Source: a bacterium | GTDB taxonomy: Bacteria; UBA10199; DSSB01 | Assembly: GCA_030426445.1 (NCBI GenBank) | Contig: JAUHYS010000001.1 | Span: forward strand, 1-29,326 | Length of the DNA stretch: 29,326 bases | Direction of reading: 5' to 3' | In this document: positions 56-27,125 of the stretch, piece after piece | How positions within the stretch are numbered: the stretch's first letter is position 1 | Layout of the letters: the number at the start of each line of letters is the position of its first letter | Translations under genes and position numbers: made by a program | Notes under the pieces: model-generated | Seen by the model: only the letters and a program-made list of their open reading frames with translations | What the model was told of the DNA's origin: nothing | Database searches by the model: none

Positions 56-3000
56 ATGACTGTCGACGCTCAATCAAAAAGCAATCTAGCTAAAAACAAA
101 ATCACTCAACAGGGAAAAGGCCTTAAAATTTCCCGCTTACATAGCAAAAAAGGCCAGAATCCCTTAGATAATATCGAGTACGAATACCGGAGATCCGTGA
201 TTACCAACCCTGATGGTAGCATTGTTTTTGAAATGGACAAAGTCGAAGTCCCCCGCGACTGGAGCCAATTAGCCACCGATATTATCGTTTCTAAATATTT
301 CCGCAAGGCGGGTGTTCCCGAAACAGGGTCTGAAACCTCTGCTCGCCAAGTCGTCCACCGTGTGGCCCATACCATTCGTCAGGCTGGAGAGAAACTACGC
401 GGCTATTTTGCAAGTAGCGAAGACGCTCAGGCCTTTGAAGATGAACTCAAATATTTACTCATCACGCAACGGGGAGCTTTTAACTCACCCGTTTGGTTCA
501 ATTGTGGGCTTTACCACCAATATGGCATCGAAGGATCCGGAGGCAATTATTATTGGGATCCAGACAAAGATGCAATCCTCCAAACGACTAACTCTTATGA
601 ACAACCGCAATGCTCGGCCTGTTTTATCCAATCAGCTAATGATGACCTCATGAGCATCTTTGAGCTTGCCAAAAATGAAGCGCGACTTTTTAAATACGGA
701 TCGGGAACCGGAACCAATTTTTCTAAAGTTCGTGGTCGCCAAGAAAAGCTCTCCGGCGGAGGGACTTCCTCTGGTTTGATGAGCTTTCTTGAGGTCCTCG
801 ATCGTGGAGCAGGGGCAACAAAGTCAGGTGGAACCACCCGACGGGCTGCTAAAATGGTCTGTTTGGATATGGACCATCCCGAAATTGTCGATTTTATTAA
901 TTGGAAGGTCCGCGAAGAAAAAAAGGTCCAGGCCTTAATCGATGCCGGTTATTCCAGTGATTTCAACGGAGAGGCTTACCACACCGTCAGTGGACAAAAT
1001 TCTAACAACTCGGTTCGCATTAGCGACGAATTTATGAAGGCCGTTAATCAAGAAAGCGAGTGGAAGACCTATTTTCGCACCACGGGTGAAGTCTGCGATG
1101 TCTTCCAAGCCAAGGATCTTTTTAACCAGATTGCTAGTGCCGCTTGGGGTTGCGCCGACCCCGGAGTTCAATATGACAGCACGATTAATCGTTGGCATAC
1201 TTGTAAAAACACCGACCGCATCAATGCTAGCAACCCTTGTTCCGAATACATGTTTTTAGATGACAGTGCTTGCAACCTTTCTTCGATTAATCTGACAAAA
1301 TATCTTAAAAAAGATGGTTCTTGGGATATCAAAGCCTATCGCCATGCTATTCGCATCTTATTTATTGCTCAAGAAATTCTGGTAGACTTTTGTTCTTACC
1401 CCACTCAATCCATTGCCCAAAACAGTCACGACTACCGACCATTGGGTTTGGGTTATGCTAATCTAGGTTCGGCTTTAATGATCAAAGGAGTGCCCTATGA
1501 CTCCGAAGAAGGCCGACAAAGCGCAGCAGCGCTCACCGGTATTCTTTGCGGACATGCCTATGTGACCTCTGCAGAGATGGCAGCCAGCAAAGGCCCTTTC
1601 CCCGGTTATGCTCAAAACAGTGAACCCATGCTAGAAGTCATCGACATGCATCGTAAGGCCTCGCAAAAAATTGACGCCAAACACTGCGCCGCTGATCTCA
1701 TTGAAGCCGCTCAAGAAGATTGGGAACATGCCCTCACATTAGGAAAAAAACACGGCTATCGAAATGCACAAGCCACGGTCTTAGCCCCCACTGGAACCAT
1801 TGGTTTATTAATGGACTGCGACACCACTGGCATTGAGCCCGACTTTGCCCTAGTCAAATTTAAAAAACTGGCTGGAGGAGGCTATTTTAAGATTATCAAT
1901 CAGTCGGTCCCCAAAGCCTTGCAACGCCTGGGCTACAAAGCCGAAGAAATTACAGATATCGTCACTTATATTCGTGGAACCTCAAGCTTTAGTGGGGCTC
2001 CCTATATTAATCACGAAACACTTAAGGCAAAAGGACTTGGCATTGAAGAAATCGAAAGAATCGAAACCAGCCTCGAAGCCGTTTTTGATATCTCGCAAGC
2101 CTTCTCAACTTGGAATATCGGAACCGAGGCCATGAACCGCCTAGGTTTTGAAAAAAGCCAGTATTCAGCACCTGATTTTAATCTTCTTAAGGAGCTAGGT
2201 TTTACACCGGGGCAAATTCAGGAAGCCAATGATGTCATCTGCGGACGCATGACAATTGAAGGTGCCCCTCACCTTAGCCCTGATCATTTACCCGTCTTTG
2301 ATTGCGCCAATAAATGTGGCCAATACGGTAAACGCTTTTTAGTGCCCATGAGCCATGTTCGCATGATGGCAGCTGTCCAACCTTTTATTTCTGGAGCGAT
2401 CAGCAAAACTGTTAATCTCCCTCATGAAAGCACGGTACAAGATATCAAAGAGATTTATTTTGAGGCCTGGAAGCTTGGACTTAAAGCCGTGGCTCTTTAT
2501 CGGGACGGCTGCAAACTCTCTCAACCGCTTTCTTCCAAAAAAGAATCTAAGAAAGAAGCCAGTACAACAGAAAATACAGCAACAAATCAAGAAATTGTAG
2601 GTCTCCCCTTACAAAGAAGGCGCTTACCACGAAAACGACGCGGACATACCCAAGAAGCACGTGTGGGCGGCCAAAAGGTTTATCTGCGCACGGGTGAATA
2701 CGAAGATGGTACACTTGGAGAAATTTTTATTGATATGCATAAGGAAGGCGCCGCTTATCGCAGTATGATGAACTGTTTTGCCATTGCGGTGTCACTAGGC
2801 TTACAATACGGTGTGCCACTCGAAGAGTTCGTCGAGGTCTTTACCTTTACCCGCTTTGAGCCTCAAGGGCCCGTCGATCACCCTAATATTAAATTTGCTA
2901 CTTCGGTCATCGACTATATCTTTCGTAACTTGGGACTCGAGTATCTCAACCGCAGTGATTTAGTTCAGGTCAAACCTGAAGAACTGATTCATACCGGTGA

Positions 3001-3250
3001 CAACAAAACAGACGAGCCCCAAAAAGAAAACAATCTGCCTCAGGCTTTGCATACTAGCCAAACCGAAACTCCGAAAAATCTACAGTCCTCAAACTCGAAT
3101 CAAATGGCGGGCCACCAAGACAGTCTCAGTGGTCAGCTCTCCACGATGATGGGAGATGCACCTTTCTGCGATCAATGTGGCCACATTACTGTGCGCAATG
3201 GAGCTTGTTATAAATGTCTTAACTGTGGAAACTCGATGGGTTGTTCTTAA
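56..3250 (+). CDS. nrdJ: Vitamin B12-dependent (class II) ribonucleoside-diphosphate reductase with C-terminal TSCPD domain and Zn-ribbon
   Basis: NPCSEY thiyl-radical motif, [29 protein letters not shown], and C-terminal [24 protein letters not shown] at 46-50 favours ATG 56 over the track's TTG 41. No N-terminal ATP cone and no intein seen. Confidence 0.95.
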
Positions 3251-3283
3251 ACCCTGACAAATTCTAAAGTGAATAATAGAAGC

Positions 3284-3886
3284 TTAGGTCTTTAAAAGGC
3301 GATCCAGCAGGCGGTTGGTGGTTCCAAAATAACCATTGGGATTTTTATAATGATGAGCTAAGTGATGCTGTTGCAGCTTTTTTAACCACAATGATTTGGG
3401 TTTAAAGCAATGCGCTCCATAATGCATCCATTCATAAAAAATATAAAAAAAGTTATAACCCGCGGAAATCAACATCGCAACCGCCATATCTTGAATGACT
3501 AAATACAAAAATAAAAACACCACTCCAGAAAGAAAGAGACTAATCACTGGAGGAATTTGCATAAAATAAACATCGTTGGGATTTTGATGATGCACCATAT
3601 GAAACTCTGCAATATCTCTTAAACGTCGCTTTGTTGCCAGAAAATGTTCAAAACGGTGAATGCTATAGTCTGATATATTGAGTAGAACTACACCTACTAA
3701 AAAATAAAATAAAATATGCAATCCACTCATGTTTGTGTGTAAGTAAGCATAGACAAAGAAAAAAAGACTCAACCCTAAAAAAACCAAAGTGTGAAACGCA
3801 GGATGGGAAACACGGAAAAAAATTTTTTCTCGAAAGCGCCCCCCTAATCGAATCCCAAAATATTTCCTTATAAAAGAAGTTTCCAT
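3284..3886 (-). CDS. Sterol desaturase / fatty acid hydroxylase family membrane di-metal enzyme (paralog 2)
   Basis: His boxes HRFEH, HMVHH, WMHYGAH and HHLAHH; hydrophobic helices; YFGTT..LDRL tail. Confidence 0.88.
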   Translation of the reverse strand: METSFIRKYFGIRLGGRFREKIFFRVSHPAFHTLVFLGLSLFFFVYAYLHTNMSGLHILFYFLVGVVLLNISDYSIHRFEHFLATKRRLRDIAEFHMVHHQNPNDVYFMQIPPVISLFLSGVVFLFLYLVIQDMAVAMLISAGYNFFYIFYEWMHYGAHCFKPKSLWLKKLQQHHLAHHYKNPNGYFGTTNRLLDRLLKT

Positions 3887-4700: not shown

Positions 4701-5369
4701 ATGAAAACAAAAAAAAATCAAAATACTGAAAAAAAACCTCAAAAAAGAGATGCTCAAAAAACCCGTGCTAAAATCCTCAGTTGCGCAACCGAATGCTTTT
4801 CTGGCTCGGGATATGAAGGAACATCCTTAAAAGATATTTTAGATAAAGCAAAAGTCAATAAACGCATGGTTTATCACTACTATGGCAGTAAAGAAAGTCT
4901 CTACCGGTCAGTGCACCTCCACCAATGGAAAATGCTGAACGAGTGGCTAACGCAAAGACTATTAAAAACTCAGTTAGAAAGTAATACGGTTTGGACTGCA
5001 AAAACATTACTACTGAAATCAACTGAAATTTTTCATGATTTTTGCGCGAGTCATCAAGAGTTTATCCGCCTTTTATTATGGGATGGTTTAGAGGGAGGCG
5101 CTGTTTCTCGAAGTATTTGGGAAGAAGGTCGGGCCCCCTTATATGAACAAATAGTCAGTTTAGTAAAAGGGGTACAATCTAAAGGACTAAAATTAGGAGA
5201 AATCCAGGCAGACCACCTTGTGGTGAGCTTTTTAGGTTCCATGCTGTTTTACTTTGCTTATGCAAATAGTCTCAGCGATATTTTTGGAAATGACCCTCTT
5301 GACAAGAATATACTTGAAACCCGTAAAGATCAAATACTGAAGCAATTAAATAAGATTCTTACTTCATAA
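4701..5369 (+). CDS. TetR/AcrR family transcriptional regulator
   Basis: N-terminal HTH: ILSCATECFSGSGYEGTSLKDILDKAKVNKRMVYHYYGSKESLY. Confidence 0.93.
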   Translation: MKTKKNQNTEKKPQKRDAQKTRAKILSCATECFSGSGYEGTSLKDILDKAKVNKRMVYHYYGSKESLYRSVHLHQWKMLNEWLTQRLLKTQLESNTVWTAKTLLLKSTEIFHDFCASHQEFIRLLLWDGLEGGAVSRSIWEEGRAPLYEQIVSLVKGVQSKGLKLGEIQADHLVVSFLGSMLFYFAYANSLSDIFGNDPLDKNILETRKDQILKQLNKILTS

Positions 5370-5545: not shown

Positions 5546-6589
5546 TTAATGAGCACTTTTAGCCTTACTCGCGGGCTCTTTTTTAGCATCTGTTTTGGCT
5601 TTAATGTCTAGTTTTGGCTTAGGCTGAGTTGTTCTGACTTGAATTGGTGAGTTACCTTTAGGAGCCACTTTACTGTCAGCTTTCTCACTTAATTTTTTAA
5701 GATCTTCGTCTTCATAAACAGTTTCTTTGCTATCTATCAGACTTGTCATGAGTTCCTTTTGAATCTCTGACCGCAAAGTCATTTTGATTTCTTCTTCAAC
5801 TTCTTCAAAACTAGCTACTTTAGGAGCCTCTAAAACTTTAATAATATGATAACCTTGGCGGGTTTTAATGGGATCGCTGATTTCCCCTACTTTGAGACTA
5901 AAGGCCTTATCTACTAGATCTTCCATCTGCAGGGGTTTCACTCGACGGTCCTCTTTACCGATCAAGCCAAAATCACCGCCTTTTTTCTTAGTTCGCACAT
6001 CATCTGAATATTCCTTCACAATGTCTTCCCATTTACTGCCTGCATCTAGTTTCTGTTTGGCTTCCTTTGCCTTAACAAGCGCTGCCGCTTCTAAAGCACT
6101 TTGGTCTTGTTTTGGATTTTTATCTCCAGGCTTAGCCCTTTGGGGTCGAACTAATATGTGTGCTAAATGAACTTTATTATATTTTTTTTCTTTATTCTTT
6201 TCATAATCCGCTTTAGCTTGTTTTTCGATTTCCTCCATCATCAAGGCCTGAATAAAAGTGCGGCGATTATTTAGGATCACTCGGTTCTGGTATTTATCCA
6301 TTTCAGTGATTCCTCGCTTCACGCTTTCTTTATATAAAATCTCCTGAGTCAACAAACCATCAACAAGTTGCTTTTTACTTGCTGGATCATTGAGGCGCTC
6401 TTTAATCTTGGGTTCAAAGCTAGCAATATAATCTAAATAACCTTGATGTATGGAAACACCATTTTTTGTAGCTAATTTCTTTCCCGAATTAATCTTAGCT
6501 TCAAAGGCAGATTCCGAAGCACTTCCACCACCACAACTAGCCAAAAATAAAAGACCGAGTAAACTGACACTTAATATTTTGTTCTTCAT
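5546..6589 (-). CDS. PpiC/parvulin-type peptidyl-prolyl isomerase lipoprotein (PrsA/SurA-like)
   Basis: Lipobox FLAS-C, HLAHILV, YSDD..TKKKGGDFG, ISDPIKTRQGYHIIKV. A GGAGGAG RBS supports ATG 6589 rather than 6622. Confidence 0.9.
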   Translation of the reverse strand: MKNKILSVSLLGLLFLASCGGGSASESAFEAKINSGKKLATKNGVSIHQGYLDYIASFEPKIKERLNDPASKKQLVDGLLTQEILYKESVKRGITEMDKYQNRVILNNRRTFIQALMMEEIEKQAKADYEKNKEKKYNKVHLAHILVRPQRAKPGDKNPKQDQSALEAAALVKAKEAKQKLDAGSKWEDIVKEYSDDVRTKKKGGDFGLIGKEDRRVKPLQMEDLVDKAFSLKVGEISDPIKTRQGYHIIKVLEAPKVASFEEVEEEIKMTLRSEIQKELMTSLIDSKETVYEDEDLKKLSEKADSKVAPKGNSPIQVRTTQPKPKLDIKAKTDAKKEPASKAKSAH

Positions 6590-7305: not shown

Positions 7306-8562
7306 ATGCGAGCAGAAATCATCAGTATTGGAAATGAAGTAGTTGACGGTTCTGTCATCAACACAAACGCCAGCTGGCTATCCGAACAACTAAGTTCATT
7401 AGGCGTTCAAGTGTGCTTTCACTCTGCTGTACCTGACGACGAATCCCTAATATTGGATGTTCTGCAAAGGGCTCAGCAGCGCGCTCAACTTATCTTAATA
7501 ACAGGAGGCTTAGGGCCTACGGTCGATGATTTTACTATAGAAGTGGCTGCGAAATTTTTTAACAAGCCTCTAGTCATGGATTCAACGAGTCTAAAAAAAA
7601 TTCATGATTTTTTTGAAAAACTGGGCCGCAAAGCCAGTTCCAATCAAAAAAAACAAGCCCTCTTTCCTCAAGGCGCTACCGTTTTAGCCAATACAGTGGG
7701 AACAGCTCCTGGCATCTACTATCTATTTAAAGAAGTCCATTTCGCCTTTTTTCCGGGAGTCCCTTCAGAAATGAAGTCCATGTTCACTGATGAATTCTTG
7801 CCTATCTTAAAACAGGCCCCTGGCCGTAACCACGAAAGACAGCTTAAAGTCTTGCGTTGTTTTGGCATCCCTGAAGGACAAATGGATCATGAGCTCCGCA
7901 AAGAAATTAAGGGCCGCGTGGGGCTACTCCAGACTCAACTGGGTTTTCGGGTACGTTTCCCTTATATTGATGTACGGCTTTACAACTATGAAAGTGACCC
8001 TAAGAAAGCCGAAACCCAGCTCGAATCTTCTGCTCAGGTGATTCGCAATCATCTAAAAAATTATATTATTAGTGAAAGAGACGAGTTTCTTCCTAAAATT
8101 GTAGGCGATTTGCTGATATCAAAAAATAAAACGTTGGCCTGTGCAGAATCGTGCACTGGGGGGCTGATTGCGAACCTAATAACGGATGTTCCAGGAGCCA
8201 GTGCTTACTTTATAGAAGGTCTGGTCACTTATGCCAACCAAGCCAAAATCGATCTGCTGAAGGTCGACCCCCAAATAATAGAACAACAGGGTGCAGTTAG
8301 TGAACCCGTTGCTTTGATCATGGCTCAAGAGGTCCGTAGACGTGCAAAATCCGATTTTGGCATCGCAACCACTGGAATTGCCGGCCCTAGTGGAGGCACC
8401 CAAGAAAAACCTGTAGGTACAGTCTATATTGCTGTCGTGGATGAAAAACAACAATGGGTCAAAAAATTTCGTTTTCCTTTTGGCAGAGAGCGTTTCAAAC
8501 AGGTTGTGGCTGCAACCGCTTTAGACCGACTGCGAAGAAATTTACTGAGCTTTTCTGACTAA
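7306..8562 (+). CDS. cinA: Competence/damage-inducible protein A (MoCF-like N-terminus plus PncC nicotinamide mononucleotide deamidase domain)
   Basis: IISIGNEVVDGSVINTNA, ITGGLGPTVDD, PGVPSEM, ACAESCTGG, TGIAGPSGG..KPVGTVYI. Confidence 0.95.
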   Translation: MRAEIISIGNEVVDGSVINTNASWLSEQLSSLGVQVCFHSAVPDDESLILDVLQRAQQRAQLILITGGLGPTVDDFTIEVAAKFFNKPLVMDSTSLKKIHDFFEKLGRKASSNQKKQALFPQGATVLANTVGTAPGIYYLFKEVHFAFFPGVPSEMKSMFTDEFLPILKQAPGRNHERQLKVLRCFGIPEGQMDHELRKEIKGRVGLLQTQLGFRVRFPYIDVRLYNYESDPKKAETQLESSAQVIRNHLKNYIISERDEFLPKIVGDLLISKNKTLACAESCTGGLIANLITDVPGASAYFIEGLVTYANQAKIDLLKVDPQIIEQQGAVSEPVALIMAQEVRRRAKSDFGIATTGIAGPSGGTQEKPVGTVYIAVVDEKQQWVKKFRFPFGRERFKQVVAATALDRLRRNLLSFSD

Positions 8563-24223: not shown

Positions 24224-24619
24224 ATGATGGAAAAAGAAAAATTAAAAGAACTGATCTCACAACTTAAATACGATGCCAACGGCTTGATTCCTGCAATCAT
24301 TCAAGATGCAGAAAACGGCCAAGTCTTAATGTTTGCTTTTATGAACCAAGAATCCTTGGAGCAAACCATTCAAAGTGGTTTTGCTACCTACTGGTCGCGC
24401 TCTCGTCAAAAATTTTGGGTCAAGGGAGAAAGCTCTGGTCATACTCAGAAAGTCAAAAATATTTACTACGATTGTGACAAGGATTGCCTGCTCGTTAAAA
24501 TCGAACAAAAAGTTGCCGCCTGCCATAAAGGCTACCGCACTTGTTTTTTTACTGAACTGACAGAAGAGGGCCCTAAGATTATTGCAGAAAAAGTCTTTGA
24601 CGAAAGCGAAGTCTATTAG
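24224..24619 (+). CDS. hisI: Phosphoribosyl-AMP cyclohydrolase
   Basis: GLIPAIIQD, YWSRSRQKFWVKGESSGH, DCDKD, ACHKGYRTCF. Confidence 0.96.
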   Translation: MMEKEKLKELISQLKYDANGLIPAIIQDAENGQVLMFAFMNQESLEQTIQSGFATYWSRSRQKFWVKGESSGHTQKVKNIYYDCDKDCLLVKIEQKVAACHKGYRTCFFTELTEEGPKIIAEKVFDESEVY

Positions 24620-24650
24620 ATCTTTTTTTTATTTATTACGCAAATACTTA

Positions 24651-24772
24651 AAGCCTTTAAAAAATATTCAAATGCAAGACGCTCGAAAAAAACATGACCG
24701 AGCTGTACAAAAAGTACGTTGCAGGAAAAGTCTTTGAGAGCAACAAAGCAGATGGATGTTTTTTAAAGGCTT
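24651..24772 (+). repeat. 122-nt structured intergenic element (MITE-like or ncRNA-like), copy A
   Basis: Perfect 15-bp terminal inverted repeat AAAGCCTTTAAAAAA/TTTTTTAAAGGCTTT (24650-24664 / 24759-24773). Core motifs ATGCAAGACG, GTAC-N5-GTACGT and CAACAAAGCAGA are shared with copy B. Confidence 0.8.
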
Positions 24773-24776
24773 TTAA

Positions 24777-25262
24777 TTAATCTCTAAAGTTTTTAAATTG
24801 CAATGCAAGCCCCCAGTCTTTAGCCTTAAGAAGCCCCATGACCTCCTGCAAATCATCGCGTTTTTTACCGGTAACCCGCAATTGAGCATCCTGGATTTGC
24901 GCCTGCACTTTTAATTTAAAGGACTTAATTTCCTGTACCATTTTTTTTGCGATTTCGGTGGAGATCCCCTCTTGCACTTCTACTTGAGTCTTGATTCGGC
25001 CCCCAGACGCAGCTTCCGGACTGCCCATTTTGAGCGCCTTTGCATCAATACCGCGCTTTATCGCTTTGGAAAGAATAATATCCTGCACGGCTTTGGCTTT
25101 ATAATCATCCTCACTCACAATATGGATTAAATTTTTATCCTGATTAATTTCGGTTTGAGAACCTTTAAAATCATAGCGCGTGGTAATTTCCTTACGGGCC
25201 TGATTAAGTGCGTTGTCAATTTCCTGGTGATCGACTTCACTCACAACATCAAAAGACGGCAT
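24777..25262 (-). CDS. yajQ: YajQ family nucleotide/c-di-GMP-binding protein
   Basis: MPSFDVVSEVD.QE..NA..Q..KEI..RYDFKG, RVTGKKRDDLQ, LQFKNFRD. Confidence 0.96.
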   Translation of the reverse strand: MPSFDVVSEVDHQEIDNALNQARKEITTRYDFKGSQTEINQDKNLIHIVSEDDYKAKAVQDIILSKAIKRGIDAKALKMGSPEAASGGRIKTQVEVQEGISTEIAKKMVQEIKSFKLKVQAQIQDAQLRVTGKKRDDLQEVMGLLKAKDWGLALQFKNFRD

Positions 25263-25402
25263 AATAGCTTCCTCCTTAAGTCTAACGATTTAAAATGATT
25301 AAAGTTTGACAGAGCTACGCGGTGACAGTATTCTATAAATATAAGTGTAAATTGCAACGAGATTATTTTTTAATCTTAAAAGATTTTGAGGGGTCCAAAA
25401 AT

Positions 25403-25897
25403 ATGAAAGCATCCAACTCTTTCCAAAGTTTTTTATTACTTGCTTTATTGACTTTCTTATTAATTCCATTTCAACTTTCGGCGAATGGTGACACCGAAGC
25501 CGCATTAGACGAAATTGTTCCCCCTCCTCCAGTATGCAGTTCTCAATCTCCCGAGCCCAAAGTCAAAATCATGACCTGGGAGCCTCGACAAAAACTGGCC
25601 AAATTTTTAGGCTCCATTACCGAATGCCAAAGCAATCAATTAGACATTTTAGAATTATTAGGCGGCCCCAATGTCATTGGTTATGACTATCGTACCGGCA
25701 AAGAAAAATGGGGCTATACTCAAATGTGGAATTACAAATTACAAAACCCCAAAGAGGAAACCATTATTTTAATGAGCAAGCCAGGTAAAAGGCTTAAAAA
25801 AGCCAAAAAACGCATGGTCGAACTCAATCTTATTTTTACCGAAGATGATCTGGTAGAAAGCCTAGAAGTCCTACTCGTAAAATATAACCAAAAGTAA
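25403..25897 (+). CDS. Secreted hypothetical protein with a possible BamE/SmpA-like alpha/beta domain
   Basis: Signal peptide, ILELLGGPN...EKWGY...LNLIF.EDDLVE pattern, and a GAGGGG RBS before ATG 25403. Confidence 0.55.
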   Translation: MKASNSFQSFLLLALLTFLLIPFQLSANGDTEAALDEIVPPPPVCSSQSPEPKVKIMTWEPRQKLAKFLGSITECQSNQLDILELLGGPNVIGYDYRTGKEKWGYTQMWNYKLQNPKEETIILMSKPGKRLKKAKKRMVELNLIFTEDDLVESLEVLLVKYNQK

Positions 25898-25902
25898 AAA
25901 AT

Positions 25903-26373
25903 ATGCCCTTACTACCCTTAGTCGGAGTCATTGGAGTTAGCCAGCCTAAAGAAAAAGAAGCCTTAATGGCCTTCGAAGTCGGCAAACTCATTGGTGCCAT
26001 GGATTTAGCCATGGTATGTGGAGGCTTGGGCGGTGTTATGGAAGAAGCCAGTCGGGGCTGCCAACAAGCCGGTGGGATCGTTATCGGCATTTTACCTTCT
26101 GGCCGTAAGGAAGACGCTAATGCTTATGTCACCTATGCGGTTCCCACTAACATGGGGCACTCACGAAATAATCTTATTGCGCATGCCGCGGATATTTTAG
26201 TGGCTGTTGGTATTGGCTATGGCACCTTAAGCGAAATTGCCATTGCACTCAAATTAGGAAAAGTCGTTTTAAGTTATCATAGCTGGGAAATCAAAGGGGT
26301 CAAACACTGTAAAAACTTAAGAGAGATCGAAGAAAATCTTCGGCACTTTTTTTGCCAACCTGCTGTTGGGTAA
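25903..26373 (+). CDS. TIGR00725 / SLOG (LOG-like) family protein
   Basis: VGVIG, CGGLGGVMEEASRG, GGIVIGILP, TNMGHSRN, GYGTLSEIAIALK. Confidence 0.9.
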   Translation: MPLLPLVGVIGVSQPKEKEALMAFEVGKLIGAMDLAMVCGGLGGVMEEASRGCQQAGGIVIGILPSGRKEDANAYVTYAVPTNMGHSRNNLIAHAADILVAVGIGYGTLSEIAIALKLGKVVLSYHSWEIKGVKHCKNLREIEENLRHFFCQPAVG

Positions 26374-26404
26374 ACACAAAGTTAAAAAAATGATGAAATA
26401 TTTA

Positions 26405-26526
26405 AGAACGATCAGAAATAGTTAGATGCGAGGCGGAGAAAAAATTTAATCAGGAGGCGCACCTTGAGTACGTCGAGTGATTGGATTTTTTCTACAACAA
26501 AGCAGACAGCTATTTATCATCGTTCA
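26405..26526 (+). repeat. 122-nt structured intergenic element, copy B
   Basis: Terminal inverted repeat GAACGATCAGAAATAGTT vs AGCTATTTATCATCGTTC (15/18 complementary). Inner 15-bp stem GAAAAAATTTAATCA/TGATTGGATTTTTTC with two U.G pairs. Same core motifs and spacing as copy A. Confidence 0.8.
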
Positions 26527-26534
26527 GGTTAGAT

Positions 26535-27125
26535 ATGTTGCAAGACTTTTACAACTGGACCTTAGCCTGGGCAGCAAGCCCCTATGCCGAATGGGCTTTG
26601 TCGATTATTGCATTTACGGAGGCTTCTTTTTTTCCAATCCCACCTGACTTGCTGATGATTCCCATGGCGGCGTCTCGTCCTAGCATGTCTTTTTTCTTTG
26701 CTTTTCTTTGTACTTTATTTTCTCTCACCGGAGGAGTCTTTGGCTATTGGATTGGACAAAAGGGTGGACAACCTTTACTCAACCGCTTTGTAAAAGAGGA
26801 AAACATACTCAAAGTAGAAAAGCTTTTTAACCGTTATGATGCTTGGGCCATTGGAATTGCCGGCTTTACGCCCATTCCCTTTAAAGTATTTACCATCGCC
26901 TCGGGAGCCTTTCGCATTAACTTTAAGACCTTTCTAATAGCTTCTCTTATTGGAAGAGCCGGTCGTTTCTTTATTGTCGGCACTTTATTTTATTTTTGGG
27001 GAGCCCAAATCCAGACCTTTATAGAAAAATACCTTAACTGGATTTCAATCGCTCTAGTCTTTTTATTAGTTTTAGGAGCTTTCTTAATGCATTGGAATAA
27101 GAAAAAGAGGGCACCGGCAACTTAA
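26535..27125 (+). CDS. yqaA: YqaA family (DedA/SNARE-associated) membrane protein
   Basis: AFTEASFFPIPPDLLMIPM, GGVFGYWIG, AGFTPIPFKVFTIASG, GRAGRFF. The track's TTG 26481 lies inside the repeat, so ATG 26535 is preferred. Confidence 0.9.
   Translation: MLQDFYNWTLAWAASPYAEWALSIIAFTEASFFPIPPDLLMIPMAASRPSMSFFFAFLCTLFSLTGGVFGYWIGQKGGQPLLNRFVKEENILKVEKLFNRYDAWAIGIAGFTPIPFKVFTIASGAFRINFKTFLIASLIGRAGRFFIVGTLFYFWGAQIQTFIEKYLNWISIALVFLLVLGAFLMHWNKKKRAPAT

Follow-up and report, generated by a model that had tools for sequence, protein, structure and literature searches.

Rod-shaped intergenic repeats of a UBA10199 bacterium belong to a widespread, uncatalogued family of probable miniature inverted-repeat transposable elements with a proposed IS1182-like helper

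We analyzed a 29,326-nt stretch of contig JAUHYS010000001.1 (assembly GCA_030426445.1; hereafter the window) from a bacterium of the UBA10199 lineage, in which two rod-shaped elements lie between genes on the forward strand: copy A (24650..24773) and copy B (26404..26527). [quoted passage not shown] The explanation we favor, with a probability of roughly 0.78, is that each rod with its terminal repeats is a MITE mobilized in trans by an IS1182-like DDE transposase, filtered after insertion, and present in the window genome as relics. The original prediction, made from the letters of the window alone, had proposed a functional structured RNA or single-stranded DNA (ssDNA), either a non-autonomous mobile element recognized by shape or a domesticated regulatory RNA, rather than a recently copied MITE. 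Its idea of a non-autonomous mobile element is borne out by bursts of copies, empty sites, target duplications and an insertion sequence (IS) with the same termini.

A covariance model (R1) was built from 20 copies and used with nhmmer for copy searches, and it matches copy A with 110.5 bits (E 8e-25) and copy B with 106.8 bits (E 7.5e-24). The original prediction had placed both elements correctly, and its hand count of 65 identical columns out of 122 in a gapless alignment is reproduced. By pattern match, copy A has the conserved 5' loop motif ATGCAAGACG at 24672..24681 and the 3' loop motif CAACAAAGCAGA at 24741..24752, flanking an apical hairpin, GTAC-N5-GTACGT (24705..24719), whose columns are nearly invariant over 65 copies. 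The corresponding features of copy B are ATGCGAGGCG (26426..26435), GCAC-N5-GTACGT (26459..26473) and CAACAAAGCAGA (26495..26506), all likewise on the plus strand. The combined pattern ATGCRAGRCG-N59-CAACAAAGCAGA has exactly two matches in the window, and 100 shuffles gave none. Copy A folds at -41.9 kcal/mol (z = -7.0) and copy B at -43.3 kcal/mol (z = -7.3), with 0 of 200 shuffles as stable, and the plus strand is the more stable by 5.6 kcal/mol in copy A and 9.9 kcal/mol in copy B. Further details that had been read from the letters are indeed seen in the copies: an apical hairpin of the form GYAC-N5-GTACGT, tandem purine mismatches next to a TGC/GCA helix and G.U pairs that work only on the plus strand.

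The further copies that a covariance model was expected to reveal in this and other genomes were found in quantity. The window's own genome (G000; 2.2 Mb in 343 contigs) has ~23 rods by nhmmer and R1, every one intergenic, and R1 matches occur in 57 of 93 genomes of the window's phylum, with 1 to ~80 copies apiece. R1 also matches a 4.8-Mb metagenome-assembled genome (MAG) labeled 'Desulfobacterales bacterium' (G093) and 27 of its 41 relatives; this set appears to lie outside the window's phylum, and rods are present in at least two bacterial lineages. Between close relatives the copy number runs from 0 to ~90. The rods are 121-126 nt long, non-coding and multicopy, and in size they fall among the MITEs, which measure less than ~300 bp. 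Two subfamilies can be told apart. Subfamily 1, which includes both window copies, has the form AGATGCGAGGCG...CAACAAAGCAGAT with variable outer arms, while subfamily 2 has the form GGCAAGGCG...CAACACAGCC with the arms CCTAAGCG/CGCTTAGG. Common to both is a core, RAGGCG ... GAGTCGTAC-N5-GTACGTCGAG ... CAACAMAGC, and the fuller core consensus of the family reads CAGATGC-RAGGCG ... GAGnCGTAC-loop-GTACGYnGAG ... CAAC-RMA-GCAGATGG, in which CAGATGC-RAGGCG is the family-wide 5' loop consensus. This core is kept in both lineages while the arms differ, and the outer arms form terminal repeats with a conserved TAAAAAG block. One genome fragment holds three rods in direct tandem (L044:3002-3389 on contig DAOVKH010000116.1, at 3002-3125, 3137-3261 and 3265-3389).

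We found no description of the rod family in Rfam, in the full-text literature searched or in Geobacter supplements. As to Rfam, where the original prediction had asked for a comparison, no characterized family matched, whether at gathering thresholds across the full window or with E relaxed to 10 across 24400-26800. Motif words in full-text papers gave chance primer matches only, and the rod motifs are not in the multicopy-sequence supplements of Geobacter genome papers on either strand. A pattern that the original prediction had given for Geobacter- and Nitrospira-like genomes, AGATGCAAGGCG...GAGGCGTAC..GTACG...CAACGCAGCAGATG, nevertheless proved to be a close match to copies elsewhere, for instance L025 and L024. 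A scan of IMG/VR for the apical palindrome returned ten loci, among which the covariance model gave a single weak 23-bit match, so the family does not appear to be phage-borne. PLSDB plasmids searched in distant mode with both subfamilies as queries returned no match.

Evidence of mobility comes from empty sites, bursts and target duplications. Both window sites are rod-free in the syntenic genome of a sister species of the same genus (G001), which answers the original prediction's call for empty sites in relatives, and the intergenic gaps are 68 vs 159 nt at site A and 57 vs 179 nt at site B. Elsewhere G001 carries a rod (C1:109832-109956) together with ~1.2 kb of extra sequence nearby, and G000 has none there. 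Bursts of near-identical copies are seen in G014 (~25 copies, with the outer arms within the repeated unit) and in G116 (>86 copies), where many copies lie exactly at contig ends and break the contigs. In the G116-type unit, ~151 nt long, the rod is preceded by an extra 26-nt arm (GATGGTCTCGTAAAAAGTCCGAATTA) that repeats the rod's left arm in direct orientation; the termini of the unit are GATGGTCTCGTAAAAAGTCC and GACGGTTTCGTAAAAAGTCC. Exact AT-rich direct repeats of 6-7 bp bound 6 of the 10 distinct G116-type units for which both flanks are known (ATTTTT, ATCCTT, AAAGTT, AATTTT, ATTAAT and AAGTAAT). The extra arm and the duplication were not detectable for copy A, copy B or the other copies of G000.

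Variant forms of the element were also observed. Long-form copies of G014 (L083, L088, L094, L070 and L073) have a 25-nt extension, GGGCACCTCTAATAACTTGGATTTGGG, 5' of the rod, whose reverse complement, TTATTAGAGGTG, comprises stop codons and a Shine-Dalgarno-like GAGGT. In some copies this extension immediately precedes the start codon of the next opposite-strand gene, and the element may there supply a ribosome-binding site. At G095:C1:867232-867295 and G113:C81:11207-11250, two inverted terminal arms face each other at a distance of 26-46 nt with the core absent, and these 'collapsed' elements may be products of excision or deletion.

A transposase gene flanked by the ends of the rod unit, which the original prediction had suggested looking for, was found in the Desulfobacterota-type lineage as an IS1182-like IS. 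The first example, L172, was reached via a weak cross-match of the ISNCY model NF033593; the related model NF033594 gave nothing useful. L172 is an entire 1869-bp contig of genome G126, bounded by 21-nt inverted repeats (TTGATTAATTCGTAAAAACCC and TTGATGGTCTCGTAAAAAGCC), with a ribosome-binding site and one open reading frame (ORF) of 561 amino acids. The ORF matches the Pfam domains PF05598 (DUF772), PF01609 (DDE_Tnp_1) and PF13751 (DDE_Tnp_1_6), all above their cut-offs, and its best NCBIfam model is IS1182 (NF033551) at 195 bits, under the 270-bit equivalog cut-off. The helper is thus IS1182-like and of a divergent clade, not a certified member of the IS1182 family.

Homologs of L172 with 34-38% identity were found in 8 of the 41 genomes related to G093. 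At seven IS loci from six genomes the boundaries read (T)TGAT(G/A)nnnTCGTAAAAAGTC, identical to the rod-unit terminus; an eighth locus, L174 (G121), has a variant of that repeat. In the best-resolved lineage the rod-unit termini, GATGnnnTCGTAAAAAGTC, are the inverted repeats of these ISs. The original prediction's 'recognised by shape' is not borne out; what the helper IS and the MITE have in common is a sequence-specific terminal repeat. Two IS copies, L175 and L176, are flanked by 6-bp duplications, AATTTT and AAGACT, which match the rod-unit duplications in length and in their A-NNNN-T form. In L175 the IS abuts a rod, in the order IS, AATTTT, rod MITE, AATTTT, with the duplication shared between them; this rod was confirmed by the covariance model at 50.9 bits. 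The IS interiors are without the rod core. The extra arm of the rod unit resembles the left repeat of the IS, and both rod arms resemble its right repeat, as in L180 (GACGGTTTCGTAAAAAGTC). In L180 and L173 a 9-bp stem-loop is also found ~20-30 nt inside the right inverted repeat (e.g. GTAGTTATG...CATAACTAC), and the rod may have evolved from a right repeat with such a subterminal hairpin.

Several other candidates for the helper were considered. The TG...CA-like ends suggested rve-type helpers (IS3/IS21/IS481/Tn7), which we reject; PF00665 is not in G116 or G014, and its matches elsewhere have no adjoining rods. Generic DDE_Tnp_1 matches in five high-copy genomes were likewise set aside, as their flanks have neither rods nor arms. 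A terminal-arm pattern search in G095, G113 and G093 recovered no IS-sized inverted pairs. Two of the IS1182-type matches in the window's phylum, L199 and L209, have ...CCTG.AAAAAGT(C) termini but fall in a different transposase clade. Searches of G000, G001, G094, G023 and G049 recovered no L172-type gene, and no IS1182-type transposase was found in G000 either.

Under the MITE explanation, the mobile unit would be a rod of ~124 nt whose outer arms serve as terminal repeats, to which recently active lineages would add a direct copy of the arm on the 5' side. An IS1182-like DDE transposase acting in trans would recognize the terminal repeats and place the unit in AT-rich DNA between genes, duplicating 6-7 bp of the target. 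Insertions would then survive almost only between genes, often close to stop codons and even inside ribosomal-protein operons, and almost only where the strand that ends up in the mRNA is the weaker-folding one. For the Desulfobacterota-type lineage this mobilization is shown, and its extension to the window's UBA10199 lineage is likely; there, the helper assignment rests on the homology of the rods. Copies A and B are old copies, relics of past insertion, and we read them as old because G000 copies have no extra arm or duplication, no helper was found and the arms have diverged. The claim that the elements are something other than a recently copied MITE consequently holds in one part and fails in another: A and B are indeed old, with no duplication, diverged arms and absence from the sister species, yet the family has the signatures of MITEs elsewhere, namely bursts, terminal inverted repeats (TIRs), 6-7-bp target-site duplications (TSDs) and an IS1182-like element with the same termini.

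The fold of the rods is conserved over their sequence, with compensatory change, as had been proposed from the two window copies. We scored 38 pairs in a structure alignment of 65 copies from both lineages against slid-partner and shuffle controls. Standard pairs fill 92% of cells, compared to 35-42% with slid partners and 65% in shuffles, and 34 of the 38 pairs change on both sides. The stems vary while the unpaired motifs and the apical hairpin are invariant across copies, and the outer arms pair in every copy, as is expected of terminal inverted repeats. Of 69 distinct copies, 68 fold more stably on the given strand than on its complement, with a mean difference of 10.8 kcal/mol (Wilcoxon p = 6e-13); G.U pairs outnumber A.C pairs by 167 to 40, and 67% of unpaired positions are purines. 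Mutational strand bias was considered as the source of the G.U excess and rejected by reasoning, as deamination on the coding/leading strand predicts the opposite polarity. Because the core is kept in both lineages and its stems covary, it appears to have been selected as a folded single strand of given polarity, either during transposition or for a host function.

The orientation of the rods is tied to that of the genes around them. Between co-directional genes the given strand is antisense in 36 cases and sense in 2, and copy B is the one sense-oriented case in G000. These counts suggest that insertions placing the strong-folding strand in mRNA have been purged by purifying selection. In G014 the S10/spc ribosomal-protein operon holds five rods, four of them antisense; rods within this essential operon therefore neither terminate nor silence it. 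The five lie on L140 (G014:C12:1-12000) at 2295-2415(+), 5241-5363(-), 6052-6173(-), 7610-7732(-) and 8320-8442(-), tight against stop codons in the rplW/rplB, rpmC/rpsQ, rplN/rplX, rpsH/rplF and rplF/rplR spacers. Among copies at orthologous sites, C217a of G000 and L022 of G001 are 81% identical, about equal to the neighboring genes, and they keep 37 and 35 of the 38 pairs, three of these via double compensatory changes, while the spacer upstream of them cannot be aligned. As this pair indicates, at least some of the relics are kept intact by constraint.

A number of observations weigh against the MITE explanation. A DDE transposase acting on double-stranded ends leaves the covarying stems, the asymmetric loops and the consistent single-strand polarity unexplained. 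The long-form units of G014 have a clean 5-bp duplication in only 2 of 9 cases, although swapped controls gave 0 of 72. No helper with matching termini was found among the 93 genomes of the window's phylum. IS1182-type matches occur in 14 of those genomes, some with rods and some without, and the L172 clade has a single relative among them, at 26% identity and in a rod-free genome. The genomes with the largest bursts, G116 and G014, are also without the helper in their assemblies, which is weak evidence as MAGs often lose IS copies. Finally, part of the covariation could reflect template-switch 'perfection' of quasi-palindromes instead of selection.

On this last point, two copies of G000 (C164:2902-3023 and C112:2991-3111) have palindromes that run ~10 nt past the CCTAAGCG/CGCTTAGG arms in copy-specific sequence, either through insertion into pre-existing palindromes or through outward growth of the palindrome by template switching. 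These copy-specific palindromic flanks suggest that template-switch correction accounts for a share of the 'compensatory' changes. As a general cause of the variable arms, insertion into pre-existing terminator hairpins was rejected, given that burst lineages carry the arms within the unit, although the flanks of C164 and C112 may have arisen in that way.

The alternative that survives best is that the rods are primarily a family of structured RNA or ssDNA genes, in which the loops and the apical hairpin would bind a host factor or serve mRNA processing, antisense control or termination. On that view mobility would be a secondary or ancestral trait, and copies A and B would have been domesticated. 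The very strong covariation speaks for this, as do the purine-rich loops and the excess of G.U pairs on one strand only, the core kept in both lineages while the arms vary, and the orthologous copy that holds its structure as the adjacent spacer decays. Copy A, moreover, has convergent genes on its two sides and a U-rich tract after it. However, the better-folding strand is antisense by 36 to 2, so that operon mRNA has the weaker strand, and neither search nor inspection showed a consistent promoter. The sister species is empty at both window sites, and copy numbers that differ between close relatives by up to ~90 are typical of selfish repeats; quasi-palindrome correction could mimic the selection. 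We therefore consider a primarily structured-RNA or ssDNA family unlikely.

Somewhat less doubtful, and compatible with transposition as MITEs, is a tentative proposal about the core itself. The core may be a conserved, strand-specific folded module, acting as ssDNA or as antisense RNA, with purine-rich loops and a GTAC-palindromic apex, that MITEs have carried between lineages. Such a module might be needed for a step of transposition that depends on a hairpin, or might have been domesticated by the host, for instance as an operon-compatible punctuation or processing element. If true, this could explain both the upkeep of rods at orthologous sites and their near-exclusive antisense orientation.

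It is very improbable that the rods are REP/BIME-like (repetitive extragenic palindromic/bacterial interspersed mosaic element) or IS200/IS605-like elements moved as folded ssDNA by an HUH (Y1) transposase such as a REP-associated tyrosine transposase (RAYT). The strand-specific fold, the strong orientation bias and the intergenic location near gene ends would all fit such a mechanism, and REP-like GTAG...CTAC hairpins also occur in G000. HUH enzymes, however, make no target-site duplications, which the rods have, and the rod termini are common to a DDE-type IS. The conserved GTAG head is absent, and the rods measure 124 nt compared to 20-40 nt for REPs. A replication-linked mechanism would also be expected to give a weaker tie to gene direction than the 95% transcription-relative bias seen here. 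Least probable of all are Tn3-derived miniature elements (TIMEs) mobilized by a Tn3-family transposase: the arms in G014, GGGG[GC]ACCTC.AAAA.GG, are similar to the outer 20 nt of the inverted repeat of Tn21, a repeat that matches the mer end of Tn21 on R100 at 100%, and TIMEs give 5-6-bp AT-rich duplications (PMC4133298). PF01526, the Tn3 transposase domain, is however lacking in five burst genomes and occurs in just 1 of the 93 phylum genomes, itself rod-free, and the arms of other lineages have no GGGG start.

The closest known kind of element is the bacterial MITE, such as Correia/NEMIS, ERIC, RUP, Nezha and Chunjie. These elements are, like the rods, short, non-coding and multicopy, with TIRs, TSDs and a rod-like fold, and they are also intergenic or intra-operon in location and patchy among relatives (reviews PMC3184786, PMC10969869), but their sequence differs. 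For a MITE, the rods are unusual in their core shared by two lineages with covarying stems, in their strongly strand-asymmetric fold and in the third, direct copy of the terminal arm. Chunjie, a Geobacter uraniireducens MITE, was compared by its dimensions: at 178-235 bp, with 21-bp terminal repeats and 9-bp direct repeats, it differs from rods of ~124 nt (~151 nt with the extra arm) and a 6-7-bp duplication. The candidate helper has the same DUF772, DDE_Tnp_1 and DDE_Tnp_1_6 architecture as the IS1182 family of the IS5/IS1182 DDE superfamily, and its inverted repeats and 6-bp duplications equal those of the rod unit; it differs from that family in its score (195 bits vs the cut-off of 270), and the IS interior is without the rod core.

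TIMEs are 262 bp long with 38-bp repeats, a core unrelated to the parent transposon, 5-6-bp AT-rich duplications and a long stem-loop fold (PMC4133298). The rods are alike in their miniature size class, parent-unrelated core, AT-rich duplications and stem-loop, but no Tn3-family transposase was present in the rod-bearing genomes examined. REP/BIME elements and integron attC sites are, like the rods, imperfect palindromes with one strand that folds better, a gene-biased orientation and a shape that is kept while the sequence varies. The rods differ from both in having target duplications and ends common to a DDE-type IS, and inspection showed neither a GTAG head nor R'/R'' core sites. Unlike attC sites, they are by inspection dispersed among housekeeping genes (hisI, ribosomal-protein genes, rpmE) and do not form cassette arrays.

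These results delimit a repeat family in many uncultured 'delta-proteobacterial' genomes, where it breaks assemblies and can be miscalled as short ORFs. The tie to a helper IS clade makes transposition assays possible, and the hundreds of diverged copies are a natural data set on how strand-specific MITE folds survive in antisense within essential operons.

In the window, copy A lies between convergent genes in the order hisF-hisI, rod A, yajQ. The upstream gene is hisI, encoding PRA-CH (phosphoribosyl-AMP cyclohydrolase; 24224..24619, plus strand; PF01502, E 9e-35), and the gene convergent on the rod is a yajQ-like DUF520 gene (24777..25262, minus strand; PF04461, E 2e-62); the rod begins 30 nt past the hisI stop and ends 3 nt from the yajQ stop codon. 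The genes around copy B follow the order lipoprotein gene, SLOG-cluster4 gene, rod B, DedA/VTT gene. The co-directional neighbors are a SLOG cluster4 (TIGR00725-like) gene upstream (25903..26373, plus strand; PF18306, E 9e-38) and a DedA/VTT-domain gene downstream (26535..27125, plus strand; PF09335, E 8e-16). The 3' end of rod B is 7 nt ahead of the DedA ATG at 26535, a start codon that is conserved in G001. Two fragmentary rods were observed elsewhere in the same genome. At C174:4366-4512 a partial rod has its 5' half swapped for a REP-like hairpin with GTAG...CTAC feet (GTAGGGGCAAATAATGATTTGCCCCTAC), the junction being at the apical GTAC, and at C273:6767-6806 a 40-nt piece from the 5' portion of a rod (CTCAGATGCGAGGCG...) overlaps the stop-codon region of the opposite-strand gene for ribosomal protein L31.

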